Virus record (IMG/VR): IMGVR_UViG_3300005748_000132
Coordinates: 20,180 to 84,179 of that record
DNA length: 64,000 nt
Strand: one strand, 5' to 3'
Source: a virus
Lineage: Duplodnaviria > Heunggongvirae > Uroviricota > Caudoviricetes
The position numbers were made by a program, and so were the translations under genes. This document shows, in pieces, positions 2,729 to 53,248 of this stretch. The notes beneath the pieces were generated by a model. The model saw nothing but the letters and a program-made list of their open reading frames with translations, searched no databases and was not told where the DNA came from. The first letter of the stretch is position 1, and each line of letters begins with the position of its first letter.

Positions 2729-2910
2729 TGAAGCATTTATTAAACTGTAGAAGAACATTCATATCATTTACTGCTGTAGTAATTCTAGGAGTAGCCTTAC
2801 TTCAAGGTCACGATACAGCAATGGCTTTAGCTGGAGTAGCTGCTTCATTGAGTGGAGCAAATGCTTTTGAAAAATCGAAAAAACCTCTTGACAAAAGTAA
2901 GGAATCGTGA
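2728..2910 (+). CDS. small membrane protein (60 aa)
   Basis: TAATG stop/start overlap with upstream gene; one hydrophobic TM segment (FISFTAVVILGVALLQG). Confidence 0.4.
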   Translation: MKHLLNCRRTFISFTAVVILGVALLQGHDTAMALAGVAASLSGANAFEKSKKPLDKSKES

Positions 2911-2914
2911 TACA

Positions 2915-3178
2915 ATGCAAGATGATATAAAACAAGCTCAAAACGCATTACTTAAAATAGCTCAGTTGAAATACCAACCTGCTATAGAAAAACAAGGTAA
3001 AAAGTTGTTAAATAAAACTGGCATTGACGAAGAAAACGTAGCAAGATTAGCTGCTTTAGCTAGGTTAGCAGCAGAAGGTGAGTTAGAAGTTGGTACTAAT
3101 TTAGGTGGGATAGACGTTGGTGCTAAACTTAGTCCAGAAGAAAAAGCAATTAAATTTGGATATAAAACAGGATTCTAA
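2915..3178 (+). CDS. hypothetical protein (track ORF 2852..3178; probable true start at ATG 2915)
   Basis: Track start 2852 overlaps the previous ORF by 59 nt. The ATG at 2915 follows the stop of 2728..2910 and has AAGGAA 9 nt upstream. TAATG overlap with the downstream gene start at 3178. Confidence 0.45.
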   Translation: MQDDIKQAQNALLKIAQLKYQPAIEKQGKKLLNKTGIDEENVARLAALARLAAEGELEVGTNLGGIDVGAKLSPEEKAIKFGYKTGF

Positions 3179-7833: not shown

Positions 7834-8264
7834 TACGTTACTTCAGTGGAGGACAAGGGGTTGACCCTACTAAATATGTAACTTTAGTTTACGCAGAAGC
7901 TCAAGCTACAGCTAATACGACTACTAGTTCAGGAACTCCTTCTTTGTTGAATGGTATGACTTTGACCCCTTTAGAAGGTGTTTATCAAGTATGGTTTAGT
8001 GCTTCAAATGAAAACACAGGAGCTGGTTTATTTAATACTCCAGAGGAGACTATATTTCAAGTGTATGTAGATGGAGTAGCTGTAGGGCACAGTAGAAGGG
8101 AAAATACAGCAGGTGATGGAGGTAGAAGTAGAGGAGTAGCTATTAATTGTAGAGTTGAAGTAGATGGAACTCAAGATGTAGAAGTTAGATGGTCAGTGAC
8201 AGGTGGTACAGCTACTTGTTTTGAAAGAACTTTATCAGTATTCAAACTAGCGGATTCAACATGA
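7830..8264 (+). CDS. hypothetical virion protein (144 aa)
   Basis: ATGA stop/start overlap with the upstream giant gene; beta-rich. Confidence 0.45.
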   Translation: MIRYFSGGQGVDPTKYVTLVYAEAQATANTTTSSGTPSLLNGMTLTPLEGVYQVWFSASNENTGAGLFNTPEETIFQVYVDGVAVGHSRRENTAGDGGRSRGVAINCRVEVDGTQDVEVRWSVTGGTATCFERTLSVFKLADST

Positions 8265-9108: not shown

Positions 9109-9132
9109 TAAATAATACCAATATAGAACCTT

Positions 9133-9151
9133 TATATTGACAACTATATAT
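9133..9151 (+). promoter_or_regulatory. conserved 19-bp element TATATTGACAACTATATAT (copy 1), putative promoter
   Basis: Identical 19-mer recurs at 15032..15050. It contains a TTGACA -35 consensus. A TAAAAT lies 15 bp downstream. It sits 23 nt upstream of the ATG at 9175 in a 66-nt intergenic gap. Confidence 0.4.
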
Positions 9152-9174
9152 AGGAACTAAAATAGAGGTGTATA

Positions 9175-9387
9175 ATGAAAGATAAACTCAAAAGTAAACT
9201 AAGAGCTTTAAAAATGCTTGCAGAAGACGCTGAAGGGTGTATGGCTTCACCAGAAGAGATGGTAGGAGCAGAAGCTCCGGTTAAAGCTACTATTATGGCT
9301 GACTCGGAAGAAGGCTTGAAAGAAGCTGCTGAGAAACTTCCTGAAATTCTCAAAAAGAGTAAAAAATTACGTAAAAATCTTAAATAA
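9175..9387 (+). CDS. small hypothetical protein (70 aa)
   Basis: Strong SD GAGGTG 6 nt upstream; helical, K/E-rich. Confidence 0.45.
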   Translation: MKDKLKSKLRALKMLAEDAEGCMASPEEMVGAEAPVKATIMADSEEGLKEAAEKLPEILKKSKKLRKNLK

Positions 9388-9401
9388 TATTTGGAGGAAC
9401 A

Positions 9402-10370
9402 ATGCCTAGAGTATTAACTGGCGATCAACTTATTAAATCCGTCAGGAAGCGTACTACTGTACCTGATGACACTAGTTCCTTCACTGATACAGATATTTTA
9501 GAAACAATTGACGAGGAGCTTAATGTACAGGTTTTACCAACCCTATTGAAGCTTCACGCTGAACACTTAGTAGTTACTGTAGATGTCCCTAGAAACGCAT
9601 CTGGAACTTATGAGATACCTTATAGAGCCGTTGGTAATACTGTTAGAGACGTGTCGTTAATAAATGGTTCAAATACCTATGAATTAGCTCAGGTTAGTGT
9701 CGGAGCTTTACCTGATTATTCTAATCAAGTCAATACATCACAAGAACTTGACCTGTTTTATGTTGAGAGTAATAAAATTAAACTAGTTACTCCTAGCGTA
9801 GACTATAATTCTATTAGAATAAAATATCATCTAAGACCTAATTTTTTAACTAAAGTTGATAAAGCTGGTATTATTGACAGTATTGTCGCTGATACTGACG
9901 CTGATACACTAACTTTAACGCTATCTCAAGTAGGTAAAAACTTTAATGAGAATTGTTGTTACGACCTTGTTGGTGCTAGAACTCCTAATAAAATAAAAAA
10001 CTTTGATCTTACTCCAGATTCTTTGACAATTAGTAGCGTCGGAGGGACGGGTACAATAGTTTTCACCTTGTCTGACGTAGAAGATTACGCAGATCTTATA
10101 GTTGGAGATTATGTGACTATTGCTGAAGAAACTCCAGTACCAAACATACCTACAGAAATGCACCCTGTTTTAGCTCAGGGGGCAGCTATACAAGTTTTAG
10201 ATAGTTTGGGTGATTTTGAAGCCTTAGCTAGAGCAGAAAAAAGAATGATGGAAATGTCAGCAGCAACTCAAGGCTTAGTAGACGATAGAGTGGAACTTGC
10301 TCCAAAGAAGATACGACCTAGAAATGGTACGTTACAATCTAGGAGAGGAAGATATAGAGGAAATCGCTAA
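9402..10370 (+). CDS. virion structural protein (322 aa)
   Basis: SD GGAGGAACAATG; sits directly ahead of the 1403-aa structural gene with an ATGG/TAATG junction. Confidence 0.45.
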   Translation: MPRVLTGDQLIKSVRKRTTVPDDTSSFTDTDILETIDEELNVQVLPTLLKLHAEHLVVTVDVPRNASGTYEIPYRAVGNTVRDVSLINGSNTYELAQVSVGALPDYSNQVNTSQELDLFYVESNKIKLVTPSVDYNSIRIKYHLRPNFLTKVDKAGIIDSIVADTDADTLTLTLSQVGKNFNENCCYDLVGARTPNKIKNFDLTPDSLTISSVGGTGTIVFTLSDVEDYADLIVGDYVTIAEETPVPNIPTEMHPVLAQGAAIQVLDSLGDFEALARAEKRMMEMSAATQGLVDDRVELAPKKIRPRNGTLQSRRGRYRGNR

Positions 10371-13300
10371 TGGCTAGTAATATAATAAAGTGCCAAGGAC
10401 TTGTAACTTATGGAAATGAGTTATCCAGACCATCTGGTTCACTAAAACAAGGAACTAATATAAATGTTGACGAAGACGGAGTTATCTCTCCTCGTAGAGG
10501 TTTTAATGATTATAACAATCCTACTAACAATGTAGAAAGTTCTGCTACTAATTTTGTATCTCAGATCATGGAATACAAAGAAGCTATTATCAGACAATAC
10601 ATGAGTAGTTTAGAATATGAAGATGTTAACGGAACTTTTCAAGCTGTTAACGGAACTTTTGAACAAGTAGAAAGTGGTTTTAGAACAAAGTGGCAAGAAG
10701 CTAATTCTAACTTATACTTTACTTCAGCAGACGGTATTAAAAAGATATCCGAAAAAGCTAGAGCTAACCTTAGTGCAAATATGGTAAGTAATGCAGGTGG
10801 TTTAAAAGCTGGTTATGCTGATGGAGTAGTTGTCCCTACTGTCGGAGGATTTTTACCTCCTAGTTCTAAAGTAGGTTATAGAGTTTTGTACGGAACTAAA
10901 GACAATAATAATAACCTTATTTACGGCTCTCCTAGTGCTAGATTTGTAGTAACTAACTTTTCTGAAGACGTACAAACTTATGAAATATCCACAATTACTT
11001 TTTCTACTACGTTTAGTACTGATGAAGTATCTAACGGTGACCATTTTGTTTATGAAAATAATACTGCAAAATATACGATTTACTTCGATGTAGATGGTTC
11101 TTCTACAGAACCTAAGACAGCTCAGACTATCGGATCAACTTATGTTAAAGTTGAAATACCTACTTCAGTAGCTAGTGCAAACCCTGCTGAAAATGACACT
11201 ATAGCTGCTATTACAGCTAACGTACTTGCTAACTCTTTAGGTGACACTACAGTTACTTTAGATGGTTCCGATACTGTGGTATTAACAAGCACTCAAGAAG
11301 ATGATATTGTTGGACTTTCTAACCCTGCTTACGCTGCTGACGGAACTACAGACATATCAACAAGAATATCTACAACTAATACTGTCGATGGTGACACTAC
11401 GATAGGTTCTAGTGCTACAGTTTCTGTTACAGGGGTTGTACCTGCTGAAGCTACTGTTGATTACTTTTACCAAGTATATAGAACTGGTGTTATTTCAACT
11501 TCTACAGGACTTACTTTGAATGATATTGACCCCGGTGACGAAATGAACATCGTCTACGAAGCAGGTCTAACTCAAGCTGAAATTGACGCAGGTGAGTTCA
11601 CATTTACCGACACTACTCCAGAATCTTTCAGAGCTGAAGGACTTCCTTTATATACTAACGCTGTTACAGGAGAAGGTATCTTGCAATCAAACGAGACTCC
11701 TCCTATAGCTTTAGACATTGAACTATTTAGAAACTACATGTTCTACGCTAATACTAAGCAACGTCATAAGCTAGAGTTTACAATTGTTTCTGTTGACGAC
11801 TTTATTTCAGACTCTACTAGAATCATAGTTGGAAATTCTGACATTACAAGATTTTATACTTTTGTAGGAGAAGCTGAAGTCACTGACCTTACTATTGATA
11901 GTATACCTACTGCTGGTGATTATATTAACTTATATTCCGCTAACGACTCTAGGCAATATTATATATATTTCGGAGATACTGGAAATGACCCCGAAGTAGC
12001 TGGAGCTATAGGCTATAGAGTTTCTTTAACTGGCTATACTCCCGATGACGCTACTCTTTCAGAACTACAAGCAATATCTTTGGATATAGAGTCAGCTCTA
12101 GTTGACAACGTAGACTTTGACTTATCAGTTTCTTCCAACACTATAACTTTTACAAATACAAATAACGGAACCTCTACAGACATGAATATTGGAGCTGACA
12201 CAGGAGCTTCCTCATTTACGATATTGGTAACTACTCAAGGAGACGGAGAAGAGTTCGCTACAGACGAAGGTGGAGACGTACTTCTCTCAGGGTTAGTTTC
12301 AGTAGGTCAATCTATTGACGAAACAGCTAGAAGTTTAGTTAAAGTTATTTCTAAAGACCCTTTATCTCCAGTTAACGCTTACTATTTAAGTACTGGTGAA
12401 GATCTTCCCGGTAACATATTACTAGAAGCTAGAAGTTTAGAAGATGAAACATTTTACATAGCTGTTGAGTCTGGTTATGATGAATATGACAATGGGACAG
12501 CTTATGTGAAAGGTGATTACGTGAGCTATTTAGGACTTGATTATGTAGCGAAAACAAGTACTACAGGCAATCTCCCGACAGATACTAACTTTTGGACTCA
12601 GTTTTCTATAGGAGGAGAATTTACTCCAGAGTTACCTGTTTCTAATACTATTATAAGTTATACAGGAACTGGGGCTTTAACTCAAATTGAAAGAACTTCT
12701 CACGGTTATATCACAGGCGATCAAGTATTTGTTGGAGTTGTTGAAAATGATTACGACGGAACAGTAACTTATTTAGCAGCTACTCCTGATAAGGTAGCTT
12801 TTAATGGTAATGTGTACGAGTGTATTCTTGACACTACAGGAATAGATAATGGCTCAGAAGACCCTAGTGGCGATACCTCTGATAACACTTATTGGCAATA
12901 TATTTCTCCTGAGTTTTCTGGAGTATACGAAATAACGTATATTGACGATGATAACTTTAGTATCGAGGTTGTTAGTCCTTCTAGTACAGTAGCTTTTGAA
13001 CCTACTTTCTCGACAATATTTAGTCCTGATGTAGAATCTGATAACGAAGAACTTGGTAATAGAATATATTTTTCTAAAAGAAATGAACCTGAAGCTGTTC
13101 CAGTTATAAACTTTATTGACGTCGGTACTAGAGACGATGAAATAAGAAGAATACTTGCTCTAAGAGATGAGCTTTATATCTTTAAAGAAGACGGTATTTT
13201 TGTACTATCTGGTACTTCAGCTCCTGACCAATTTGGTAACGGAGGCTTTTCTGTAAGACTTATTGATAACACTAGGATATTAGCTGCTGACTCTGCTGTA

Positions 13301-14581
13301 GTTCTTAATAACCAAATATACTGCTTGACAGAACAAGGTGTAGCTAGAATCTCAGGAAGTAGTGTCGCGATTATATCTAGAGGTATTGAAGACTCTATTG
13401 ACAAAATCACTAATCAAGGGTTTAATTTTAGACCTAACACTTTTGGAATATCTTACGAGAATGATAGAGCTTATCTTCTATTTGCTCCTACTGACTCAGG
13501 TGATTCTAGTGCTACCCAAGTTTACAGGTATAACATATTTGAACAAACTTGGTCAAGGTGGGAATACGAAGCTACTTGTGGACATGTACTTTCTCGCGAC
13601 AATAAATTATACGTAGGTAACGGAGATAGAAACTATATTTCTCAAGAAAGAAAGAATAACGATAGAACTGACTTCTCTGATAGAAACTTCACAAGAGCTA
13701 TCGGTTCAGATTCGGTGCAAAGTACTAGAATACAAATATCTAGTGTATCAAATGTAAAAGCTAATGACGTTATAGTTCAACAGCAAGATGTTACGATAAA
13801 TTATATAAACAATAGAATCTTAAAAAAGATGGATTTCTTTGATACAGGTGTAACACCTCCTGTAGGCTCGACAATGTTAGAGTCTTTTGGAGTTAGTGCT
13901 GGTGACAATTTAGCTACAGCAATGCAAGCTTTAAATGATTACTTAAGAACTTTAGATGCTGTGAATATTACAGCTAAATCGTTCACTTTGAGTAATATCA
14001 AAACTGAAACTCAGACACTAATAGACGAGCTTAATTCATCAGGTTCTTTAACTTCTTTGAAAAGCTACAAGAGCCCTTACACTTATTACTACGAAGCTTA
14101 TATAATTGAAGTTGACACACTACGAAATATAATAACTGTTCACACAGAAAGACCTTTCATTGAAGGTGATATCGAAGTTTATAAAGGTTACACTTGTACA
14201 GTAGAATGGAACCCTCAACACTTTGGAGATCCTTCTGCTTTAAAACAAATACGCTTTATAACTATCATGTTTGACCAAAACAACTTCTACGCTGCTACAG
14301 CCAAGTTTGCTTCTGACGCTTCTGCTGCTGTAAATGTAGTAGATTTTAACGGTAAAGGGATAGGTTACTGGGGAGATTTACCTTGGAGTGATCCTAATGA
14401 TTACTGGGGTGGAGACGGTAACGATATACCTTTTAGAAACCCTGTACCTCGTGGTAAACAAAAGTGTAGATACTTGTCACTAACTTTCGAGCATAAAATA
14501 GCTAGAGAAGAGTTTAAGATAGTAGGTATTTCAGGAGAAGTTAGAAACATTAGCAATAGAGCTTATAGGAACTTAGGATGA
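10370..14581 (+). CDS. large virion structural protein (1403 aa)
   Basis: Long ORF with T/S/D/G-rich beta composition and an internal duplicated segment (KYTIYFDVDGSSTEPKTAQTIG vs YYIYFGDTGNDPEVAGAIG). Confidence 0.5.
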   Translation: MASNIIKCQGLVTYGNELSRPSGSLKQGTNINVDEDGVISPRRGFNDYNNPTNNVESSATNFVSQIMEYKEAIIRQYMSSLEYEDVNGTFQAVNGTFEQVESGFRTKWQEANSNLYFTSADGIKKISEKARANLSANMVSNAGGLKAGYADGVVVPTVGGFLPPSSKVGYRVLYGTKDNNNNLIYGSPSARFVVTNFSEDVQTYEISTITFSTTFSTDEVSNGDHFVYENNTAKYTIYFDVDGSSTEPKTAQTIGSTYVKVEIPTSVASANPAENDTIAAITANVLANSLGDTTVTLDGSDTVVLTSTQEDDIVGLSNPAYAADGTTDISTRISTTNTVDGDTTIGSSATVSVTGVVPAEATVDYFYQVYRTGVISTSTGLTLNDIDPGDEMNIVYEAGLTQAEIDAGEFTFTDTTPESFRAEGLPLYTNAVTGEGILQSNETPPIALDIELFRNYMFYANTKQRHKLEFTIVSVDDFISDSTRIIVGNSDITRFYTFVGEAEVTDLTIDSIPTAGDYINLYSANDSRQYYIYFGDTGNDPEVAGAIGYRVSLTGYTPDDATLSELQAISLDIESALVDNVDFDLSVSSNTITFTNTNNGTSTDMNIGADTGASSFTILVTTQGDGEEFATDEGGDVLLSGLVSVGQSIDETARSLVKVISKDPLSPVNAYYLSTGEDLPGNILLEARSLEDETFYIAVESGYDEYDNGTAYVKGDYVSYLGLDYVAKTSTTGNLPTDTNFWTQFSIGGEFTPELPVSNTIISYTGTGALTQIERTSHGYITGDQVFVGVVENDYDGTVTYLAATPDKVAFNGNVYECILDTTGIDNGSEDPSGDTSDNTYWQYISPEFSGVYEITYIDDDNFSIEVVSPSSTVAFEPTFSTIFSPDVESDNEELGNRIYFSKRNEPEAVPVINFIDVGTRDDEIRRILALRDELYIFKEDGIFVLSGTSAPDQFGNGGFSVRLIDNTRILAADSAVVLNNQIYCLTEQGVARISGSSVAIISRGIEDSIDKITNQGFNFRPNTFGISYENDRAYLLFAPTDSGDSSATQVYRYNIFEQTWSRWEYEATCGHVLSRDNKLYVGNGDRNYISQERKNNDRTDFSDRNFTRAIGSDSVQSTRIQISSVSNVKANDVIVQQQDVTINYINNRILKKMDFFDTGVTPPVGSTMLESFGVSAGDNLATAMQALNDYLRTLDAVNITAKSFTLSNIKTETQTLIDELNSSGSLTSLKSYKSPYTYYYEAYIIEVDTLRNIITVHTERPFIEGDIEVYKGYTCTVEWNPQHFGDPSALKQIRFITIMFDQNNFYAATAKFASDASAAVNVVDFNGKGIGYWGDLPWSDPNDYWGGDGNDIPFRNPVPRGKQKCRYLSLTFEHKIAREEFKIVGISGEVRNISNRAYRNLG

Positions 14582-14982
14582 AAATAAACAACACTACACA
14601 AATTAGAGCAGACGACTTTGCTGACGATGATAAAAGAGTAGCTGCTAGATTAGGTGAGATATTAAACCCTTTTATGCAACAAGTAGTTGAATTAAGCGAC
14701 GGAAGAGTAGATTTTGAGAATAGGGTTGAGAATATAGTACAAGTTACTTTTACAGTAGATAGTAGTGGAATACCTGTTTTAAACAATAAACTTAATACAG
14801 GAAAAGCTAGTGTTCGAGGCTTTCAGGTAATTGACGCTAGAAGTACTCAGAATACAGCTATTACTGCTGATTCTCAACCTTTCATAAGTTATACTCCCAT
14901 AGGTACAGGAGTAGTACAGGTTAATAAAATCAGCGGTTTACCTGCTAGTAGTGAAATGTTACTTACTATTATAGTTTACTAA
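14578..14982 (+). CDS. hypothetical virion protein (134 aa)
   Basis: ATGA overlap with the upstream gene. Confidence 0.4.
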   Translation: MKINNTTQIRADDFADDDKRVAARLGEILNPFMQQVVELSDGRVDFENRVENIVQVTFTVDSSGIPVLNNKLNTGKASVRGFQVIDARSTQNTAITADSQPFISYTPIGTGVVQVNKISGLPASSEMLLTIIVY

Positions 14983-15031
14983 ACTGCTGTAATTACTAAG
15001 AATAAGGAAATAGTACTTAAATAGTACCCTA

Positions 15032-15050
15032 TATATTGACAACTATATAT
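15032..15050 (+). promoter_or_regulatory. conserved 19-bp element TATATTGACAACTATATAT (copy 2), putative promoter
   Basis: Exact repeat of the element at 9133..9151; lies in a 126-nt intergenic gap, 58 nt upstream of the ATG at 15109. Confidence 0.4.
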
Positions 15051-15108
15051 TAGACTCGTGAACTGCGCAAATACTCACGTTTCTAAATAAACCTTAAGGA
15101 ATTTATAA

Positions 15109-16743
15109 ATGGCATTTGTTGATGACCCTACTAAAAATTCACAAGAAACTCCTGTATCAGGACCAGCTCCTCTAAGTAATGAAGCTCCAATGGCTGACAC
15201 TTCAGGACAGTCTGCTACACCGGGTTCTAACGCTCCTACAAGCTCTACAGGAGCTTCTATCAACCAAGCTACTAGTAAGGGCGGTTCTACTAACAAAAAG
15301 GCTCCTAGAGCCAGTTCTGGAGCTTACACGAACATTCAGAAGTACGTGGAGAAGAATCAACCTCAAGCTCAGAAAATGGCAGGAGCTGTAAGTAAGGACA
15401 TAGGTAAACAAGCTGAGTCTATAAGAAACGCTGTAGAGTCGCAAAAAGCTCAAAAAGAGAACATTTTACAAACTAATGCTCAATCTATTCAAGGAGCTAC
15501 TGACTGGGCTAAAGATCTAGTTGGTAATATCTCAGGAACTCAACAACCTACTACTCAAGTTACTCCGTCTGACCAAGAAGTAGCTACTACTCCAGAACCA
15601 TTTCAACCTTCAGAAGAAGACATAACTAGATTTCAGTCCTTAATGCAAGGAAATGTACAAGGAGTTCAAGCTCCTCAAGACTTAAATATACGCAAAGACC
15701 AAGCTCAAGCTAATGCTTTACAGCAATTAGCAGGTACAGCAGATACAGAAGCTGGTAGAAGAAACTTATTACAACAGACTTTCCAGAAACAAGGTGACTA
15801 TACTCGCGGTATGTCAGGTTTAGACCAGCTTATTACTTCTGGTGATCAAGCAGCTAGAGAGCAGTTGGTTACTGGTACTCAAGGACAAGCTCAGACACTA
15901 CAAGACCAGCTAAGGTCAGCTTTACAAGGTTACCAAGCTCAACAGAGAGAACAGCAAGTTCAGTTAGGTGGACTAGGTGAACGAATAGAAGGGTTTGGCA
16001 CAGAAGCTGTGAGTGGTATTCAAACGGCAACAGAACAAGAGCTGGTTAATAGAATGGGAGATTTCGGAACAGATCAACAGGAGTTTGAACAAGCTTTAGC
16101 TAGAGGAGAAGTTACTCAGGAACAACTTCAAAATTACTTAGGAGAAGGTTCTGTCCAAAATATGTTATCAGAAGCTCGTAGAAGACAGGATGAATTATCT
16201 GATTATTTACAGAATACTAAAGATTTTGCAACAGTAGACGAGGATTCTAGGTATTTAGACTTAGTTGGTTTAAATGCAGATCAAGTACGTAAGGACTACG
16301 GAGATTTTATAAATCAGAGAATGTCAGAGTATGATGAACAAAACCCTGTATATGACCCTAATAAGTACTATGGTAATGTTTCAGGGTCTGATAAATATGG
16401 AGATTCTACAGAGAGATCACAAGTTTACGCTAAAGCAAAACAAGATTTTAAAGATTCGTTGGCTAATCAAGTAAGATCTCAGAAAGTAGATGAGCAATTA
16501 ATATTAGACAACCTATTACAGGCTGCTAATCAAGGTAGTTTACAACTTAGTGGACCTAGTGCTTTAAATCTTTCAGCAGAAGACGTAGCTACTCCAGAGC
16601 AAGTAAAAAGATATAATGCGTTACAACAGTTGATAGGAAGCTCTCAAGAATGGACTCCTGAAATGATTACAGAAGCTCCTGAAGAAAAAGGTGCGTTGAA
16701 AACTGAAGATTATAATATATATAAGAATTTACTAGGGTTATAA
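15109..16743 (+). CDS. Q/A/T-rich virion protein, scaffold- or internal-protein-like (544 aa)
   Basis: Low-complexity Gln/Ala/Thr/Ser-rich sequence with coiled-coil character; SD aaggaatttataaATG. Confidence 0.45.
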   Translation: MAFVDDPTKNSQETPVSGPAPLSNEAPMADTSGQSATPGSNAPTSSTGASINQATSKGGSTNKKAPRASSGAYTNIQKYVEKNQPQAQKMAGAVSKDIGKQAESIRNAVESQKAQKENILQTNAQSIQGATDWAKDLVGNISGTQQPTTQVTPSDQEVATTPEPFQPSEEDITRFQSLMQGNVQGVQAPQDLNIRKDQAQANALQQLAGTADTEAGRRNLLQQTFQKQGDYTRGMSGLDQLITSGDQAAREQLVTGTQGQAQTLQDQLRSALQGYQAQQREQQVQLGGLGERIEGFGTEAVSGIQTATEQELVNRMGDFGTDQQEFEQALARGEVTQEQLQNYLGEGSVQNMLSEARRRQDELSDYLQNTKDFATVDEDSRYLDLVGLNADQVRKDYGDFINQRMSEYDEQNPVYDPNKYYGNVSGSDKYGDSTERSQVYAKAKQDFKDSLANQVRSQKVDEQLILDNLLQAANQGSLQLSGPSALNLSAEDVATPEQVKRYNALQQLIGSSQEWTPEMITEAPEEKGALKTEDYNIYKNLLGL

Positions 16744-17084
16744 TGAGATTATACGCTGACTACATAAAAGAAAGAGAGGACAAAGAGTGTGTTTATAACG
16801 AACATTGTTTTATAACATATAATTTATACGATGATAGTGTTTCGATTATAGACATATACTCTTCTCTAGAAGTTAGAGGTAGTAAAATAATGCTTAACTT
16901 TTGTAAAGACTTTTTCGAGAAGATGTGGAAACAAGGTATTAAAACCGCTTATGGTTATACTGACGAAAGTACAAATGGTTGGGAAAATAGTGAAAGACTT
17001 ATGTTAAAGTTCGGTTTTAAAAAGCTAGACAAAATAGAAGAAAATTATAATAATTATATACTTAATATCGAGGAGATTTTATAA
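16743..17084 (+). CDS. small protein, weak GNAT-acetyltransferase-like (113 aa)
   Basis: ATGA overlap; segment …LEVRGSKIMLNFCKDFFEKMWKQGIKTAYGYTD… loosely resembles the GNAT acetyl-CoA motif; weak. Confidence 0.3.
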   Translation: MRLYADYIKEREDKECVYNEHCFITYNLYDDSVSIIDIYSSLEVRGSKIMLNFCKDFFEKMWKQGIKTAYGYTDESTNGWENSERLMLKFGFKKLDKIEENYNNYILNIEEIL

Positions 17085-18850
17085 TGGGTGGAAAATCACA
17101 AGACCCTAACAAAGCGGCAATGAAGTTTCAAAAAGAGCAAATGAAGAGGTTAGAAGGTATAGACCTTCCTGAGCTTCAAGAGTATATTCTACAAAATCCT
17201 GAGTTAGTTGGTTTATTAGAAGCTGAACAACTTGGAGACTCAGCTTTAGAAGAAATCTCACTAGACCCTCAACTTAGAGAGCAGCAGTTAGCAGCTTTAG
17301 AAAACTTAAAAGAATACGCTGATACAGGTCTTACCGAAACTGATAAATACGCTATGGAGCAGATGTTAGGTGATGTAGCATCTCAAGAACAAGCTAGTCA
17401 AGCAGCTATTGAAGATAAGATGGCTCGTCAAGGAATGGACTCTTCTGGAGCAGCTTTAATGGCTAAAATGCAAGCTCGTCAAGAAGGAGCTAATAGAGGT
17501 AGAGAACAAGCTATGCAAATGGCTTCTCAGGGTCAACAAAATAGAATGGCAGCTTTGAACCAATTAGCAGGTCAGTCAGGTCAGATGCAACAAGCTGATT
17601 ACTCAAGACAGGCTCAGACAGCTTCCGCTAGGGATGCTATCGCTAGAGCTAATGCGGCTAATAGACAAAATGTAAATGCTCAGAATTTAGCAGCAAGACA
17701 AGCTATAGAAAACCAAAGAGCTAATATTTCTAATCTACAAGCTCAAGTGGGTAATCAAATAAATCAACAAAACTTTCAAAATCAATTATCTAGAGCTACT
17801 GGACAAGGTAGTACTGCGAACGCTATGAGTAATATAGCAGGTAATGCTCAACAAGGACCATCGGGTTTACAAACTATAGGTACTATCGGTGGAGGTATTG
17901 TAGGAGGTATTTATGGTGGACCAGCAGGAGCAGCAGCAGGTGCTTCAGCAGGAGGAGCTATAGGAGGAGCCTTATCAGCAGAGGACGGTGGAGTGATTAA
18001 AAAATATGCCGACCCTAAATCAGTTCATTATAATAATAAAAATACACCGATTTTCAACGAAAATTACTATAAAATGATATCTGGTGAAAATGATGTAGAT
18101 CAAACTATTGAAGCTTCTGGAGGTAAAAGATTAGGTATAGATAACGATATGACTTCAGCAGAAGTTCAAACCAATCAGGACGCTAAACAAGCTTTAGGTA
18201 ATCAGGATCAAGGAATGTCAGCTCAGGATATGACAAAAGCTCTAGGGGCTTTGAACTCTATAATGGGTAAAAAAGAAGGTGAATCTAAACCTAGGTTAAA
18301 ATTAGGTCAGTTTTCAATGTCACAACCTGAGAATGTTATGAATCCTGTCGGACCTCAAAACTTCGCTAATCCTTACGCTGCTGCTGATGGAGGTATACCA
18401 AAAGAGTTACAATCTCCTGATAGAGAAGCTGAAGTAAATAGAATGTTAGGTAAACCAGAAGATAATAAACTTATGATGACTGACTCTTATGAAAATGGAG
18501 GGGTTCCTGAGTATGCTTGCGGTGGTACTCATAATAAGCCTGAGTTTGCTTCAGGTGGGATCGGAGAAATAGTTGATAGTGGTATGGACTCTTACGCTGG
18601 CGACCGCATAGACGCTAAAATAAACGATGGAGAGATGATATTAAATGTACCTCAACAACAGAGACTTATGGACGTTCTTAGAGGCGAAGAATCGCTTGAC
18701 AATCTAGGAGATTCTGATATAATAGAAGGAGTTCCTAGTGACTATAGAGACGAGCTTCATGAAATGTCAGAAGAATCAGATGAAGAAAACGAAAGTAGTA
18801 AAAGAGTTAAGGGACTTAAAGCTCTCTTAGAAGCTTTAGGAGACGAATAA
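17084..18850 (+). CDS. internal virion/ejection-like protein with Q-rich and Gly-zipper regions (588 aa)
   Basis: Gln/Ala-rich helical region; glycine-rich stretch GGGIVGGIYGGPAGAAAGASAGGAIGGAL; ATGG start overlapping the upstream stop. Confidence 0.45.
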   Translation: MGGKSQDPNKAAMKFQKEQMKRLEGIDLPELQEYILQNPELVGLLEAEQLGDSALEEISLDPQLREQQLAALENLKEYADTGLTETDKYAMEQMLGDVASQEQASQAAIEDKMARQGMDSSGAALMAKMQARQEGANRGREQAMQMASQGQQNRMAALNQLAGQSGQMQQADYSRQAQTASARDAIARANAANRQNVNAQNLAARQAIENQRANISNLQAQVGNQINQQNFQNQLSRATGQGSTANAMSNIAGNAQQGPSGLQTIGTIGGGIVGGIYGGPAGAAAGASAGGAIGGALSAEDGGVIKKYADPKSVHYNNKNTPIFNENYYKMISGENDVDQTIEASGGKRLGIDNDMTSAEVQTNQDAKQALGNQDQGMSAQDMTKALGALNSIMGKKEGESKPRLKLGQFSMSQPENVMNPVGPQNFANPYAAADGGIPKELQSPDREAEVNRMLGKPEDNKLMMTDSYENGGVPEYACGGTHNKPEFASGGIGEIVDSGMDSYAGDRIDAKINDGEMILNVPQQQRLMDVLRGEESLDNLGDSDIIEGVPSDYRDELHEMSEESDEENESSKRVKGLKALLEALGDE

Positions 18851-20073
18851 TGGCTAATAACAACCTAATGGAAACATTGATGAAAGCTCTACAAGGTCAA
18901 GACACTCAGGAGATACAACCTCCGATGGCTGCTGTAGAAGAGGCTCAATTGGCTGAACTAAATCAAGAAGCTAAGTCACCTTATCAAAAAACTAATGAGG
19001 AACTAGTTCAAGATAAACTTCAACAAGAAGCTCAAAGAACTGTAGCTGGTAATATGCAACAGGAAGTTCCTGTAAATAACCCAGTTTCTAATGTAGCAAA
19101 AGCTGAGGATGTAGCAGGTAAACAAGAAGCTGTGAAAGATGAATTTGACCCTGTGAAAAAACTAAGAGAAAATATATTAGCTTATGAGAAAAAGGTTAAT
19201 GAAAAAAAAGAACCTAATAGTGATGAAAAAGTAATAGATTGGTTAACAGGCATAGGTAAAGCTGCTAATGTATTAGCTAAAGCTAAAGGTAATTCTTTAG
19301 GTGAAGTTCAATATTCTGGAGATTTGAGACAATCGAAACAAGCTCAACAAAAACAGCAAAAACTGAACCAGCTTCAAAAATTACAAGGTCTATATAAAGA
19401 CTATTTAGCGACTCAGAAGAAACCTGCTGAAATGACCCCTTACCAAAAAGCTAAACTTGGTCTAAAAGAAAAAGAGCTTGAGTTAAAAGGTCAGAAGAAA
19501 AGTACAGCAGCTCCTACTGAAGGAGAAAAGGTAGTAGATAAAGAATTTGCTAAAGAGTACACTAAGTGGAATACTGGTGGTAGAGCTGACTACGAAGTTA
19601 ATAGTAAAATCTTTCGTGACGCTATAAAGGCTTTGGAAGAAGGTAAAGTTGACACAGGTTCATTAGCTGGTTTAGGTACAGACATACCCGGTCAAAGAAC
19701 TAAGACTAGAGAGTTACAAGCTACGGTTAGAAAAGCTATCAATGGTATGTTGAGAGCTACGTTAGGTGCGCAGTTTACTGAGAAAGAAGGGGAGAGAATC
19801 TTCCAACAAACATTTGACCCCTATGCATCAAAAGAAGCTAATATTAGAAATATGCAATTAGAGCTAAAAAAATTAGATAAACGCAAGGCTTCTATAGATG
19901 ACATGACTAATTATTACAAAGAAAATAAAACACTAGCTGGTTATGATGCTCCTCAGACTACTCCTGAAATAAAACAACAACCTGAAGCTAATGAAGTCCG
20001 TAGAAAAACAAAAGATGGTAAGATTGCTATTTTTGACGCTGACACTAAAAAGTTTTTAAGATATGAAGATTAG
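18850..20073 (+). CDS. Lys-rich virion protein (407 aa)
   Basis: TAATG overlap coupling; K/E/Q-rich helical protein. Confidence 0.45.
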   Translation: MANNNLMETLMKALQGQDTQEIQPPMAAVEEAQLAELNQEAKSPYQKTNEELVQDKLQQEAQRTVAGNMQQEVPVNNPVSNVAKAEDVAGKQEAVKDEFDPVKKLRENILAYEKKVNEKKEPNSDEKVIDWLTGIGKAANVLAKAKGNSLGEVQYSGDLRQSKQAQQKQQKLNQLQKLQGLYKDYLATQKKPAEMTPYQKAKLGLKEKELELKGQKKSTAAPTEGEKVVDKEFAKEYTKWNTGGRADYEVNSKIFRDAIKALEEGKVDTGSLAGLGTDIPGQRTKTRELQATVRKAINGMLRATLGAQFTEKEGERIFQQTFDPYASKEANIRNMQLELKKLDKRKASIDDMTNYYKENKTLAGYDAPQTTPEIKQQPEANEVRRKTKDGKIAIFDADTKKFLRYED

Positions 20074-20773
20074 TAGAAAAAATTTAATTTATGTTCTCAG
20101 AGATTGTAATGACAATGTTAGATATGTTGGTCAAACTATTAGAGGTAAGTTTAGATTTAAAGATCACGTGAGAAAAAGAAACAGGAAACAACCTGTTTCC
20201 TGTTTTTTAAAAAAATGTATAGATCAAAAAATAAAGTATCGATTTGAAATAATAGAATACTGTCCAAAATCTATACTAGACGATAGAGAAATATTTTATA
20301 TAAAATACTATAGAAACTTGGGATGTAACTTATTGAACCTAACCGACGGAGGGAGTACCACTAAAGGATATAAGCACACTAAGGAAGCTTTGAAGGTTAT
20401 GTCTGACAATCAAAAAGGTACACCATCTAATTTCAAAGGTAGGAAACATACCGAAGAAACTAAAAGAATTTTTTCCTATAAAGCTAGTCTGAGAACAGGA
20501 AATTTAAACAACTTTTATGGAAAGAAACATTCAGAAGAATCGAAAAATAAAATGTCTGAGACTAAAAAAAGAATGTTCAAAGATAAAACACTAATTCCTC
20601 ATAATTTAAGACCTATACTATGTCTATATAATATGAAAACGTACAATAATTCTAGAGAAGCTGCCGAAGACCTTAATGTACCATCTAGTTCTATAAGATC
20701 GGTACTTCAAGGAAAATCTAGAGTATTATACGGAAAATATAAATTTATATATAAGGAAGATTACGATGGCTGA
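20063..20773 (+). CDS. GIY-YIG homing endonuclease (free-standing, I-TevI-like)
   Basis: N-terminal GIY-YIG motif (IYVLRDCNDNVRYVGQT…RFKDH). Two NUMOD3-like repeats (GRKHTEETKRIFS, GKKHSEESKNKMSE). Inserted between two structural genes and overlaps both. Confidence 0.75.
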   Translation: MKISRKNLIYVLRDCNDNVRYVGQTIRGKFRFKDHVRKRNRKQPVSCFLKKCIDQKIKYRFEIIEYCPKSILDDREIFYIKYYRNLGCNLLNLTDGGSTTKGYKHTKEALKVMSDNQKGTPSNFKGRKHTEETKRIFSYKASLRTGNLNNFYGKKHSEESKNKMSETKKRMFKDKTLIPHNLRPILCLYNMKTYNNSREAAEDLNVPSSSIRSVLQGKSRVLYGKYKFIYKEDYDG

Positions 20774-23700
20774 TCCTAAATGGGAAGAAACAAAAGAATT
20801 AGATTCAGATATTCCTAAGTTTGAGGACACTGAAGACATTATTGATGAACCTGTATCTAAAATAGAATCTTCTGTTAGAGGATTGGTTAGCGGTGCATCC
20901 TTGGGTTTTGCTGACGAGCTACAAGCAGCTTTATCTGCTATTGGTGAAGACGTACTAGGTGGATATCAAGAAGGTCAACCTAAAGTAACTTTCGATGAAG
21001 AAGGTCGTCCAGTAGTTCCAGAAGGTACTGGAGCAGGTTATGAAGAGAACTTAGAAGAAACTAGAGCAGCTTATAAAAAAGCTCAAGAAGACAATCCTAT
21101 AACTTACGGAGCTTCAGAATTAGCTGGAGGTATCCTTCCCGGTTTAGCTACAGGTGGAGGAGCAGCAGTAGGTAAAGTAGGAGCAGGCTTAGTAAAAGAA
21201 GGAGCTGAACAAGCTATAAAAACTGCTATAGTAGAAGGTGGTAAGTTAGGAGCTAAATATGGAGCAGTATCTGGACTAGGTTACTCAGAAGGTGAAACTC
21301 CGTTAGAAGTAGCTGGTGATGTAGCAGCAGGAACAGCAGCAGGGGCTTTAGGCGGAGCTTTGATACCAGCAGCAGCTAAAGGAGCTAAGACTATAACTAA
21401 AGGTTCCACAGACGCTGTTAAAAGCTTATTAAGAAAACTTCCGGGAGCTGAAACTATAGAAGCTGGTTATAAATATGGTAGACTAGGTAGAGCTTTGAGT
21501 CAAGAGAATTTAGACGAAGATTTAGCTAATACTGCAAAAACTATTCTTGGTAATATTCAACAAAAGAAAAAAGATAATGACTTAATAGGACTCAAGCAAC
21601 AACTTGACGACTTGGGTTTCAAGGTCGATACAAAAGAAGCTATAAATGAAGCGATTGACGACCTTCAAAAAATAGAGTCGAAAGATTTCCTAAAACTTAA
21701 TAATAAGGAGATTCTTCCTAAGTTACAAGAGTTCTCAGGTATAAATCCTAGTGAAGAAAAACTCATGGAAAGAGCTTTACGCGACTCTCTAAAAAAGAAG
21801 CTACAATCTCAGTCAGCTCAAGAACAAGCTATTATAAAAGGTGAGAAATCACTAGCTAAAGAAGCTTTAAAAAGCGGAGAAGAGCTTCAGCAAATAAATG
21901 ATATAAAGAAGTCTATGGACGACTTAGGACTTCCTCTAGACACTACACAGGGTCAAATAGGCGGTGTAAAAGGTAAGTTTAGAACTCCAGAAGGTGAAGA
22001 AAGACTTAAGACGGTACTTTCTGACACTACAGAGTTTCAGCCTGAGATATCTAAATTGGTAGGACCAGATGGTAGACCTATTGTAACGACTAAGGATTTA
22101 GGTACTGGTAAAGTACAAGCTTTAGTTGGAGATGTACAAAAGAAGTTAGATGTTGACTTAGAGAATATGTCATTGGAGGATGTAGACTATCTTCGTAACC
22201 AATTAAACGAAGTAGTCAATTTAGAAAAAATGAAAGGTTCTGTTAAAGATCCTGTTATAAAAAGAGCTATGAACTTAGCTTCTAGACTTAAAGAGCTTTC
22301 TGATCAAGTTGTTGAGGGTTCAGGACAAACTGGACTTATCGACCGTAGAAAGACTTTCTCTGAACTATTTGGAGCAGAAGAACTCCTTGGAATCAAGGGT
22401 AGATTAGCTCCTACAAAAGAAGCTGACGAGTTTGCTAAGATTACTAACTTGATGGAAAAGCTAGGTGTAGAAGGTGGTATAAAAAAGAGAATGGAAAGAA
22501 GTAGAGCTTTGGAGCTTCTAGGTGAAGACGTAGTTCCTCAGAAACAAAGAGATCTTCTTGAAACTATTAGAACCTTAAATGCTAGGCAAGGATATGGGGA
22601 TGAGAATATCTCTAGATCAGGTATATACCAAAGAGTTGTAGGTACTGTTCCTAATATCGCAGGATTAGCTCAATCTAAAGCTAGTAAAATAATAAGTCCA
22701 GCTACGCGAGCTACAGAAGGCATTAAGAGAATGTCAGCTCAAGAACTAGGTGACTTTGGTAATAAGTTAGCTAACTCTAATAATCAAGGAGCTAAAGTTC
22801 TAGGTAATAGACTTTTAGAAGCTATGTCTCAAGACGGTGCTGCTCAGAACCAAATATTATGGTCACTATCTCAGTCTCCAGCTTTTAGAGAGCTAGTTAA
22901 AAGAAATGCAAATGTTGGACTAGAGGCTGAAGTTGCTGAATTAGAGCAGATGTCACCTTCTTTTGATGAAACTAATCCACAAGAGCAAGTAGATGTAGGA
23001 ACTGAAGTAGAGAACTCTGTATTAGCTCCTGAAGTAGAAACTTCGACAATAGAAGAACCTTCTAGAGAACCTAGTAGTGTCGCAAATATCGACGAAGCTC
23101 TAGATTTCATAACTAGTGACGTAATAGAAGGTGGATATCAAAACCAAGAAACCGACCAAGGTAATTTTTTAAATGGTAAAAACTTAGGTACTAACCACGG
23201 AATAACTCCACAGGCTTATTTGAATTACTATGGAGTTGAACCTAGTGAAGAAGATATGAGGAATCTTACAAAAGAACAAGCTAAAGAAATATACAAATCT
23301 GACTATTTACAAAAACCTAAGATTGATCAAATCCAAGACCCTAATCTTCAGACTGCTGTTATGGATTTTGGTATAAACTCAGGTTCTGACAGAGCTATAA
23401 AATATCTTCAAAACTTAGTGGGAGTACAAGCTGATGGAGTAATAGGACCAAAAACACTAGAAGCTATAAATAATTATCAAGGTGATATAGTGTCGGACTA
23501 TCTACAAACAAGAAGAGATTTCATTACCGAAATATCTAAAAATCCTAAATACAGTATGTATGAAAAAGGTTGGAATAATCGTATTGATACACTGGGAGAA
23601 ATGTTAAAGTCTGAAACTCCGACACTACAAGAACCTGTAGAAGAAGTAGAAGCTCCTTCAGAAGAACAAGTTCAAGACTTAGAAGACGTTATTGACAGAG

Positions 23701-23891
23701 TTAATCAGCAGCAGAGTTCTGGTGAAAACACACCTATGAGTCAACTTGATGAATTACTTGGTAAAATAGACCAGTTAAAGATCTCAGAAGCTGATAAAGA
23801 CGAGCTGGAAGTAGAAGCTACTAACATGGTAGGATACAGCGACGGACAGATACTGAAGGATAAAATAAGAAGACTACAAGGGTTGTCGTGA
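20766..23891 (+). CDS. large internal virion protein with C-terminal peptidoglycan-binding domain (1041 aa)
   Basis: Gly/Ala-rich N-terminal region; coiled-coil middle. C-terminal …GITPQAYLNYYGVEPSEEDMRNLTKEQAKEIYKSDYL…VDGVIGPKTLEAINNYQ… resembles predicted PG-binding domains (PF09374/PF01471 type). Confidence 0.55.
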   Translation: MADPKWEETKELDSDIPKFEDTEDIIDEPVSKIESSVRGLVSGASLGFADELQAALSAIGEDVLGGYQEGQPKVTFDEEGRPVVPEGTGAGYEENLEETRAAYKKAQEDNPITYGASELAGGILPGLATGGGAAVGKVGAGLVKEGAEQAIKTAIVEGGKLGAKYGAVSGLGYSEGETPLEVAGDVAAGTAAGALGGALIPAAAKGAKTITKGSTDAVKSLLRKLPGAETIEAGYKYGRLGRALSQENLDEDLANTAKTILGNIQQKKKDNDLIGLKQQLDDLGFKVDTKEAINEAIDDLQKIESKDFLKLNNKEILPKLQEFSGINPSEEKLMERALRDSLKKKLQSQSAQEQAIIKGEKSLAKEALKSGEELQQINDIKKSMDDLGLPLDTTQGQIGGVKGKFRTPEGEERLKTVLSDTTEFQPEISKLVGPDGRPIVTTKDLGTGKVQALVGDVQKKLDVDLENMSLEDVDYLRNQLNEVVNLEKMKGSVKDPVIKRAMNLASRLKELSDQVVEGSGQTGLIDRRKTFSELFGAEELLGIKGRLAPTKEADEFAKITNLMEKLGVEGGIKKRMERSRALELLGEDVVPQKQRDLLETIRTLNARQGYGDENISRSGIYQRVVGTVPNIAGLAQSKASKIISPATRATEGIKRMSAQELGDFGNKLANSNNQGAKVLGNRLLEAMSQDGAAQNQILWSLSQSPAFRELVKRNANVGLEAEVAELEQMSPSFDETNPQEQVDVGTEVENSVLAPEVETSTIEEPSREPSSVANIDEALDFITSDVIEGGYQNQETDQGNFLNGKNLGTNHGITPQAYLNYYGVEPSEEDMRNLTKEQAKEIYKSDYLQKPKIDQIQDPNLQTAVMDFGINSGSDRAIKYLQNLVGVQADGVIGPKTLEAINNYQGDIVSDYLQTRRDFITEISKNPKYSMYEKGWNNRIDTLGEMLKSETPTLQEPVEEVEAPSEEQVQDLEDVIDRVNQQQSSGENTPMSQLDELLGKIDQLKISEADKDELEVEATNMVGYSDGQILKDKIRRLQGLS

Positions 23892-24241
23892 TGAGAAATG
23901 AGGATTTGGTAGTAGAGCTAGTAAAGAAAAGTAGCGAGGATATTTCTGATATAAAGTCGGATATATCTGTAATGAAAGTAGAAGTTAAGAGAAATCGCGA
24001 AGACCTAGAAGAGCATATGGCTCAAACTAGAGCTGTTAAAAGCTTAGCTTTAGATGTCAGACAAGAAGCTGAAGATAAAATAGAAGCTATTAGAAGTCAG
24101 TTTAATACGGACATTGCTGAGATAAATAAGAAGCTTTCTATTGGATACTTGTTCAAACTTATATTGACTGTAGCTGCTGGAATCTCGACACTATCAGGAG
24201 CAATTTACGGAGCCATTAAGCTGATCGACCTTCTGAAATAG
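23888..24241 (+). CDS. XhlA-like/holin-like membrane protein (117 aa)
   Basis: N-terminal coiled coil plus a single C-terminal TM helix (LFKLILTVAAGISTLSGAIYGAI); last + strand gene before the convergent junction. Confidence 0.4.
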   Translation: MMRNEDLVVELVKKSSEDISDIKSDISVMKVEVKRNREDLEEHMAQTRAVKSLALDVRQEAEDKIEAIRSQFNTDIAEINKKLSIGYLFKLILTVAAGISTLSGAIYGAIKLIDLLK

Positions 24242-25442: not shown

Positions 25443-25771
25443 TACTTCTCCTTATTAAAATACTTAGCTCTTGTCTTACCTTCGTAACTTAAATCAAAGT
25501 TACCTGATATGTTGTAGTACTTCTGCTTACCTGTTCTTGACTTCTCGAAATACTTACTTAGTGTCCGAAAGAAACCTATTTTACTCATGTCTCCTTTGAA
25601 CTTGTCTTTATACGTATACCATATCACATAGTTGGGAGTTCTGTCAAGACTTTTTTTAAGGTTATACTCGTGAATAAACTTCTCTATTTCGTTGTTAAAT
25701 ACAGGTTTGGGTTCCGAAGAACCCTCGCCTAGTATTGAAAGGAGTTTATCAACCTCGTTCGACTCTGACAT
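25442..25771 (-). CDS. hypothetical protein (109 aa)
   Basis: ORF; ATGA overlap. Confidence 0.4.
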   Translation of the reverse strand: MSESNEVDKLLSILGEGSSEPKPVFNNEIEKFIHEYNLKKSLDRTPNYVIWYTYKDKFKGDMSKIGFFRTLSKYFEKSRTGKQKYYNISGNFDLSYEGKTRAKYFNKEK

Positions 25772-26923: not shown

Positions 26924-26983
26924 TGTTCCTCCAATGGTTCTATATATCTTAACATGGTTTTAAACTCAGGTCAAGAGTTTTTA

Positions 26984-29954: not shown

Positions 29955-30492
29955 ACTCCTTCACCCCTTCTCCTCGCAAATAACCCTCACACACTCCCAG
30001 AGCGTCGAAATAGTCGCTAGGAACCGTCCTAAGATTACCTGTTATGTTACTCTCAATCTTCTCTGGAATGTCCATTTTAGCCCTGAAATAAGCTTCTGTA
30101 GGCTGTTTATAATCCCTCTTTCCCTTAGCATTTTTTACAGCCTTTATACCGCAGTTTTTTCGCCAAGTCTGAGGAGTTATCTGATTAAGTTTCAAACCTA
30201 GTTCTTCGCAAACTGACATAACAGCCCCTTGAAGATGGGGACAAACTAGCGAACCCATGACTCTGCTAGTGTTGAAAACGTAACTCTCGAACACTACTTT
30301 TTCTAGCTTCTCATCAGAGTTTATGAACATTCTCTTAACAAATCTAGCTATCTCATAGCACTTTTTCTCGACACTATCGTCTTTATGAAACCAAATAGCT
30401 CCTACTTCTTGTATGATAGCTTTGTTTTTAGTTGACTCTGCTATTACGTAGCCTGTGCATGTTGATGATATGTCAAGGAATAAGGTTTTCAT
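29932..30492 (-). CDS. RuvC-like Holliday-junction resolvase
   Basis: N-terminal FLDISSTCTGYVIAE (catalytic Asp); acidic VVFESY and DYFDALGV positions consistent with the RuvC fold. Confidence 0.6.
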   Translation of the reverse strand: MKTLFLDISSTCTGYVIAESTKNKAIIQEVGAIWFHKDDSVEKKCYEIARFVKRMFINSDEKLEKVVFESYVFNTSRVMGSLVCPHLQGAVMSVCEELGLKLNQITPQTWRKNCGIKAVKNAKGKRDYKQPTEAYFRAKMDIPEKIESNITGNLRTVPSDYFDALGVCEGYLRGEGVKEFEHETMD

Positions 30493-53242: not shown

Positions 53243-53248
53243 CTCACA

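Follow-up and report, generated by a model that had tools for sequence, protein, structure and literature searches.

The 64,000-nucleotide (nt) stretch of DNA analysed here, which we call the window, covers positions 20,180 to 84,179 of the IMG/VR record IMGVR_UViG_3300005748_000132, a virus of the class Caudoviricetes, and carries two copies of a 19-nt element, TATATTGACAACTATATAT, each placed ahead of a set of virion genes. Our analysis indicates that this element is real and conserved and that it is very probably a promoter of some kind. The best-supported reading is a late promoter of a known phage-specific class, found here in an uncharacterised lineage of uncultured phages with genomes of 80-85 kilobases (kb). 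It is likely, though with somewhat less assurance, that this promoter is lineage-wide, that it is recognised by something other than sigma-70, and that it starts transcription about 7 nt past its conserved core. The features that we observe directly are the conservation of the element, its copy number, its strand and intergenic placement, the order of terminator and then element, and the contrast with the early promoters. From the layout we infer where transcription starts, that it is late, and which enzyme reads the element.

A scan of the whole 64-kb window recovers TATATTGACAACTATATAT exactly twice, at 9133-9151 (copy 1) and 15032-15050 (copy 2), both times on the plus strand, as the original prediction had stated, and no further match is found on either strand of the window with up to three mismatches, including the minus-strand early block from which the element had been said to be absent. 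Dinucleotide shuffles yield a mean of 0.05 matches, and two matches occur in none of 100 shuffles. The map of open reading frames (ORFs) bears out the claim that the copies occupy the only sizeable gaps of the structural block: the gaps 9109-9174 and 14983-15108 are the sole ones longer than 14 nt within the plus-strand block (1-24241), and the copies end 23 nt and 58 nt upstream of the ATG codons at 9175 and 15109, respectively. The two sites are identical over 19-21 nt, with a weaker likeness that runs on for ~40 nt upstream of the 19-mer. Both copies contain a perfect TTGACA (9137-9142 and 15036-15041), and copy 1 alone is followed by a -10-like hexamer (TAAAAT, 9158-9163) at 15-nt spacing from it, copy 2 having no good -10, as previously described; the TTGACA is nevertheless incidental, since relatives carry TTAACA or TTAGCA in its place. 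Within IMG/VR the exact 19-mer gives one match, inside a coding region of an unrelated contig, which we judged to be due to chance. No match to the motif in a phage context was found in the literature searched, the matches being primers and unrelated sequences only.

Relatives of the window were taken to be the 11 distinct IMG/VR loci, on contigs of up to 85 kb, that encode a homologue (37-59% identity) of a protein of 322 amino acids (aa) from the operon behind copy 1. Both operons are syntenic between the window and these relatives, and the search of relatives that had been proposed finds the element at both syntenic sites in ten of the 11 loci (Table 1). The equivalent of copy 1 (the a-site; present in L002-L009, L018 and L022) lies upstream of the small gene preceding the homologue of the 322-aa protein. 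The equivalent of copy 2 (the b-site) lies 5.3-6.7 kb past the a-site, upstream of the homologue of a 544-aa protein, a gene whose product starts with MAY or MAF. Three farther relatives of the 322-aa protein from metagenome bins (29-36% identity) have the same gene order with neither the motif nor the gaps, and Rheinheimera phage Barba19A has no such motif, though much of its replication module is common with the phage of the window. Because Barba19A shares this module and lacks the motif, whatever reads the element is not part of the shared module, and the absence of the motif from Barba19A and from the three distant relatives confines both the element and whatever reads it to a single sub-lineage. 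A metagenome scan for relatives of the minus-strand block returned one 7-kb contig, too little for a conservation screen.

The module itself deserves a comment. Between 26984 and 53242 the window shares with NC_048190.1 a ribonucleotide reductase, a DNA polymerase (46% identical), NAMPT, PRPP synthetase and a macro-domain gene. This sharing is with the Rheinheimera Barba myoviruses, and the virion module is unrelated to theirs, which indicates modular exchange. Nitrincola phage 1M3-16 and a Vibrio phage likewise have DNA polymerases that match that of the window.

The fullest view of the element comes from the relative L026 (IMGVR_UViG_3300009080_000001; 84,758 bp), whose contig ends overlap by ~120 nt, so that its map is circular. 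L026 has at least seven copies of aaaTTTAACAACTATAT, those at the a-site and b-site and five others (Table 1), which are identical to one another over 17-18 nt; all lie on the plus strand, and none of the seven is inside an ORF of at least 60 aa. Among the other relatives, L029 has four copies and L030 two, and the window shows only two because it begins inside the fibre genes. The plus-strand block of L026 runs from the first gene through a small terminase-like gene, the large terminase, an HNH gene, the portal, the scaffold and a 421-aa major capsid protein to the tail fibres. Since this map places the major capsid protein elsewhere, the 322-aa protein is not the capsid protein. Two candidate non-coding transcripts were also noted in L026. 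One (2801-3147) runs from the late-element copy in the ORF-poor island to the hairpin GATCGCCCCATGATCGGGGC followed by TTT, and the other (7926-8160) is a G+C-richer stretch with a sigma-70-like promoter (TTGACA-17-TATATT) on one side and the first late element on the other. Rfam and transfer RNA scans of the L026 early region gave no match.

A profile built from 31 sites of 13 phages has the consensus AT-TTAACAACT-ATATA and contains ~21.7 bits of information. The nine-base core, TTAACAACT, varies only at its third and fourth bases; the third is A in 27 of the 31 sites, and the G that creates TTGACA occurs only in the genome of the window. Private core variants of this kind are common to both copies of a genome (TTGACAACT in the window, TTAGCAACT in L003), and all four L029 copies share CTATAG. 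The hexamer that follows the core is AT-rich and clade-specific (ATATAT, ACTTAT or ACTTAC, ATAGTA and others). Identity among copies is 0.77 within a genome versus 0.65 between genomes, the pattern that would be expected if a single recognition protein coevolves with all the copies of its genome; recombination, acting through concerted evolution, may be another source of this within-genome likeness. The conservation across relatives supports the earlier suggestion that the whole element, not a pair of TTGACA and -10 boxes, is the recognised unit. The core is asymmetric, with no dyad symmetry, and all 31 sites lie on the coding strand, which argues against a repressor operator. A TATAAT upstream of some sites was considered and set aside, as it is not consistent across sites.

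The relatives also constrain where transcription would start. A Shine-Dalgarno box in good position starts 8 nt after AACAACT in three of them (L003, L005 and L008), and in L022 (13702-13722) the conserved ATG of the b-site gene lies 6 nt after the core, so that the start must fall within 7-8 nt of the core if the message is to be translatable. The most probable start would thus be a purine ~7 nt (6-8 nt) past the core, so that the core would span roughly -16 to -8. Most sites read tAG(G/A) directly past the AT-rich hexamer, and across the sites the distance from the element to the start codon ranges from 6 to more than 200 nt. This geometry would rule out the core as a -35 box or as an upstream activator site. 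Taking the TATAnT that follows AACAAC as a -10 hexamer was likewise rejected, because it would put the start within the ORF of L022 and, for L003, L005 and L008, beyond the Shine-Dalgarno box. A leaderless message for the b-site gene of L022 is plausible, since the first early gene of L026 (7860-7912, minus strand), behind an ordinary promoter with the arrangement TTGACA-17 nt-TATCTT-5 nt-ATG, probably gives a leaderless message itself. The predicted copy-2 leader is modelled with a stem-loop at its 5' end, and as a whole it is not more stable than shuffled sequences (z about 0). Several long leaders have a stem-loop that opens 1-2 nt into the folded input, which was taken from just past the hexamer, with z-scores from -0.4 to -2.3, and in L002, L004 and L026, for which the fold inputs start one base earlier than that of the window, comparable stem-loops follow the element from ~8-9 nt past the core. 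These predicted leader structures are suggestive only.

The early block presents a different picture. Its intergenic gaps contain canonical sigma-70 promoters of the form TTGAC[a/t]-17 nt-TA[c/t]AAT or TGGTATAAT (Table 1), and from these textbook promoters it follows that the host has a canonical sigma-70, which the phage uses for its early and replication genes. Two matches to the sigma-70 consensus also occur on the plus strand within coding sequence of the virion block, TTGACA-16-TGaTATAAT at 18696-18723 (12 of 12 consensus positions) and TTGACA-17-TGaTACAAT at 2888-2916 (11 of 12); these may have arisen by chance or may act as promoters of host type within the block.

We searched for the protein that reads the element. 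Pfam and PHROGs scans of all 79 minus-strand ORFs detected no RNA polymerase or sigma family, nor did those of the ten largest ORFs of the plus-strand block. The 61 small minus-strand ORFs, scanned as a concatenation with their coordinates kept, gave no match to Sigma70_r2/r4 or to a phage sigma family at E-values up to 0.1. Polymerase subunit families (split beta/beta'-like) were not detected among the scanned minus-strand ORFs of the window, and no homologue of gp55, gp33, a sliding clamp or a sigma factor was found. No ORF of at least 250 aa in the window or in L026 contains two of the three catalytic motifs of T7 polymerase. The sole match to DxDGD, a DFDGD in a 105-aa ORF (46551-46868, minus strand) beside a primase-like gene, was discounted, since its GDFDGD reads as the E...DxD motif of a split-off TOPRIM domain and not as part of a polymerase. 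The early region of L026 is made of small ORFs, most of which lie outside the scan, and the three largest, which were scanned, encode a HATPase protein, a MoxR-type ATPase and a VWA protein and no polymerase or sigma factor. The region adjoining the early end of L026 matches the window at 61-62.7 kb. As every part of the genome thus has a counterpart in either the window or L026, the phage is unlikely to encode a canonical polymerase, whether single-subunit or multisubunit. Small, fast-evolving sigma-like proteins routinely escape Pfam and PHROGs. One small protein, of 127 aa (30489-30872, minus strand), has its own sigma-70 promoter and is conserved in L039. Its structural model, which has a predicted local distance difference test (pLDDT) score of 84, combines a long helical hairpin with a C-terminal CxxC-17-CxxC zinc ribbon, a modelled architecture reminiscent of polymerase-binding factors, and a structural search with this model returned only generic, non-significant zinc-ribbon matches. 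The model of a conserved 151-aa protein (pLDDT 43) was unusable.

These observations can be assembled into a working mechanism. The functional unit would be a contiguous ~18-20 bp comprising a short A/T run, the core TTAACAACT and an AT-rich hexamer. Copy 1 would start the messenger RNA for the genes at 9175-14982, and copy 2 that for the genes at 15109-24241, which include the predicted ejection and lysozyme proteins. The early and replication genes on the opposite strand would be served by host sigma-70 holoenzyme acting at TTGACa-17-TAcAAT, and not by the element. The most likely reader would be the host RNA polymerase core redirected, much as T4 gp55 does, by a specificity factor that the phage encodes. 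This arrangement is favoured because the early genes depend on the host enzyme and the scans reveal no polymerase of the phage itself; an unrecognised phage polymerase would rank second. The proposal of a phage-specific promoter made in the original prediction is supported by the relatives, the placement, the strand and the absence of the element from the early block with its sigma-70 promoters. The scans detected no phage RNA polymerase or sigma factor.

There are precedents for such an arrangement. T4-type late promoters are read by the host core with the phage sigma-like protein gp55, and the gp36 protein of phiEco32 is a phage sigma factor with single-element promoters. The present element would resemble these in being a single element that ends ~6-7 nt before the predicted start and has no -35 box, and in standing only before genes of presumed late timing, with early genes on host sigma-70 promoters; its reader, too, would be a phage protein so small that profile searches could easily overlook it. 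It differs from the T4 promoter in sequence, which is unrelated (TTAACAACT here versus TATAAATA), and in being about twice as long and richer in information. Some likeness extends to the late promoter of the AR9 non-virion RNA polymerase, 5'-A(-11)ACA-(6N)-U-A/G(+1) (PMC7598289). The lineage consensus AACA-ACTATA-T-A fits this pattern and would put the start 5 nt past the core, which is within the permitted range. However, the window copies read GACA, with G where AR9 strictly needs A(-11), and AR9 is a jumbo phage with uracil DNA whose enzyme is a polymerase of several subunits, no such genes being detected here. This resemblance is probably fortuitous.

Several points tell against the preferred reading of a late promoter served by host core and a phage factor. 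The relative L021 lacks the a-site and has a divergent b-site (TTAACCTATAAT). The start site and the late timing are deduced from the layout alone, and the assignment of host core plus phage factor as reader derives from a negative result. Since sigma-like proteins so readily escape profiles, the failed search for one neither supports nor refutes that assignment. Moreover, the window leaves out ~6-8 kb of the early region and ~18 kb of the virion block of this phage, and ~28 kb of L026 lay outside the search. Finally, an element that is long, contiguous and near-identical among copies is more typical of promoters of single-subunit polymerases than of sigma-dependent ones.

This last point leads to the promoters of T7, T3 and SP6, which are read by single-subunit phage RNA polymerases. 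Like these, the present element is one contiguous block (~20 bp there, 17-21 nt here) that is conserved and nearly identical among the copies of a genome. Its 5' end is A/T-rich, its middle is specific to the lineage, its 3' part is TATA-like, and the start is rich in purines (L002 and L004 have TAGGGAG). A hand alignment with the T7 consensus shares ACnACT, 7 nt and then GGGAG. As the T7, T3 and SP6 groups do, each genome has private variants that recur in all its copies, and the position of copies before tail and ejection operons and after a post-capsid terminator parallels that in T7. A T7-type promoter read by a single-subunit, or otherwise novel, phage RNA polymerase is nonetheless improbable, though it is a serious rival to the preferred reading. 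The scanned ORFs of the 64-kb window and of 56 kb of the relative contain no RNA_pol family match and no pair of catalytic motifs; the largest minus-block ORF without an assignment is far below polymerase size, and the counterparts in the relative of the parts outside the window hold only small ORFs and packaging and capsid genes. Clades differ in the final 6 bp ahead of the start, and the 80-85 kb genome with its two opposed gene blocks does not have a T7-like layout. We regard it as less doubtful, if still only a tentative idea, that the promoters are T7-style in being long and genome-specific and that their reader, in a lineage in which no gene for an RNA polymerase or sigma factor can be recognised, belongs to a new class of phage transcription-specificity protein, which would be either a factor that reprograms the host core onto a contiguous promoter of ~20 bp or an unrecognised small polymerase.

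The remaining explanations fit the data less well. A post-transcriptional RNA signal, whether a processing site, a conserved 5' leader or a translational operator, would account for the strict location of the element on the coding strand just before start codons and for the stem-loops that follow it at several loci. Little upstream transcript is to be expected, however, at the copies that lie ~80 nt past a strong terminator or before the first plus-strand gene; the distance to the start codon is highly variable, and the conservation reaches into the upstream A/T run in a DNA-like fashion with no covarying structure, so that we consider such a signal distinctly improbable. An operator, which had been offered as an alternative in the original prediction, or an activator site for a separate core promoter is more improbable again. 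The element is indeed a long, specific and repeated DNA word in regulatory gaps, and the phage encodes small proteins of DNA-binding type, such as a PHB_acc_N domain protein (59545-59769). Against this stand the lack of dyad symmetry, the single orientation of all copies and, in L003, L005, L008 and L022, the want of room for a separate -10 box and start before the Shine-Dalgarno box or ATG. Least credible of all is an ordinary host sigma-70 promoter with TTGACA as its -35 box. In its favour are the perfect TTGACA in both window copies and the TAAAAT 15 nt downstream in copy 1. Against it, the G of TTGACA is private to this genome, so that the -35 box is not conserved in the relatives, and neither copy 2 nor the relatives have a -10 hexamer 16-18 nt downstream, the corresponding position in several relatives being a Shine-Dalgarno box or coding sequence. 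Moreover, the genuine sigma-70 promoters of the phage look different and lie on the other strand.

Table 1. Features of the window and element sites in related phages; positions refer to the window.
Feature	Position	Strand	Description
Plus-strand block	1-24241	+	C1q-type fibre protein, 1551- and 1403-aa proteins without family, HNH endonuclease, 1041-aa lysozyme protein
Minus-strand block	24242-64000	-	Ribonucleotide reductase, dUTPase, DNA polymerase, primase- and helicase-like proteins
Copy 1 (a-site)	9133..9151	+	Exact match; core TTGACAACT at 9137-9145; syntenic element in relatives
Predicted start region, copy 1	9152..9154	+	Purines of 'tAGG', 7-9 nt after AACAACT; from Shine-Dalgarno boxes and ATG of relatives
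Operon behind copy 1	9175..14982	+	Tightly packed genes of 70, 322, 1403 and 134 aa (ORF map)
Copy 2 (b-site)	15032..15050	+	Exact match; core TTGACAACT at 15036-15044; syntenic element in relatives
Predicted start region, copy 2	15051..15053	+	Placed by the geometry of copy 1
Predicted stem-loop, 5' end of predicted copy-2 leader	15051..15085	+	UAGA..CGUGA-loop-UCACG..UCUA; RNA fold
Operon behind copy 2	15109..24241	+	Low-complexity proteins of 544, 588 and 407 aa; 113-aa acetyltransferase-like protein
Sigma-70 promoter, TTGACT-17-TACAAT	30873-30915 and 49286-49333	-	
Sigma-70 promoter, TTGACA-17-CATAAT	61390-61437	-	
Sigma-70 promoter, TTGATC-17-TATACT	58520-58658	-	
Sigma-70 promoter, TGGTATAAT	60720-60758 and 53243-53367	-	
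Further gaps with promoters of canonical sigma-70 type	26924-26983 and 56684-56833	-	
L002 sites (core in capitals)			a caatTTAACAACTatatatagagaac; b tattTTAACAACTatatatagggagt
L003 sites (core in capitals)			a taaaTTAGCAACTatatactagagg; b caaaTTAGCAACTatataatgagga
L009 sites (core in capitals)			a ataaTTAACAACTacttacgggtag; b ttaaTTAACAACTacttgtaatagg
L022 sites (core in capitals)			a ttttTTAACAACTtatactataaac; b ggatTTAACAACTtaatatATG
L026 copy		+	Before the first plus-strand gene, in the divergent region
L026 copy		+	After the large terminase gene
L026 copy		+	Inside the 283-nt gap 5' of the capsid gene, ~200 nt from the gene
L026 copy		+	~80 nt past the strong intrinsic terminator GGGGAGGTGCAATGCCTCCCTTTTTTTTT that follows the capsid gene
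L026 copy		+	In a 2-kb ORF-poor island of the early region; GC-rich hairpin and T-run ~330 nt later

The window has a G+C content of ~36%, and no near-identical phage is present in INPHARED, where the 322-aa protein has a single relative at the protein level, in a partial record of a Silvanigrella phage that lacks the motif. An exact look-up of the 322-aa protein gave no record, a 352-aa ORF used as a search seed found no relatives, and comparison of the 1551-, 322- and 1403-aa proteins with PDB sequences yielded nothing useful. The genes of the operon behind copy 1, whose synteny is kept in nine relatives, have no family assignment in Pfam or PHROGs, except that the 1403-aa protein has a CBM_5_12 module. 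The operon behind copy 2 further encodes an HNH endonuclease, a 1041-aa protein with a GH108 lysozyme domain and peptidoglycan-binding domains, and a 117-aa protein. An internal-virion or ejection role is predicted for its products from their composition and gene order. Glutamine- and alanine-rich low-complexity proteins are also encoded in the plus-strand block, and the minus-strand block additionally encodes a Sak recombinase, exonucleases, NAMPT, PRPP synthetase and many small ORFs.

Some further features of these blocks were recorded. The HNH homing-endonuclease gene (20063-20773, plus strand) is inserted in the middle of the operon behind copy 2, and L026 has another HNH gene between its terminase and portal genes. 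A ClpP-family (prohead-type) protease is encoded on the early strand of the window (25771-26532, minus) behind a promoter of sigma-70 type; the portal, scaffold and capsid genes of the relative are on the strand opposite to that of this protease. At the early end of the window (63057-63371 and 63826-63987) there are tandem 15-nt and 18-nt repeats, whose products are repeat proteins of pentapeptide-like (NTGxY) and hexapeptide-like type. Of all 8-mers in the window, TAGTGTCG (reverse complement CGACACTA) is the most abundant, with 44 copies versus 1.3 expected from shuffles (for example at 2517-2524, 30369-30376, 44144-44151 and 58569-58576). Its copies occur in either orientation in both gene blocks, mainly within ORFs. 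The shorter TAGTGTC occurs 86 times in the window (13.4 per 10 kb); in extended form the consensus reads T-n-TAGTGTC-[G/A]-n-R-R-W-T-T. The 8-mer is not enriched in any relative or in Barba19A, and it looks like a DNA word of uptake-signal, Chi, nicking or modification type that is specific to this genome.

For the 80-85 kb group of environmental phages to which the window belongs, the motif provides a testable map of late transcription, with promoters, a post-capsid terminator and probable leaderless messages. As a DNA word of high information content, the element could serve as bait for whatever reads it. If that reader proves to be neither a known type of sigma factor nor a known phage polymerase, it would represent a new way of redirecting transcription, and the short, orthogonal pair of promoter and factor would then be useful as a tool.

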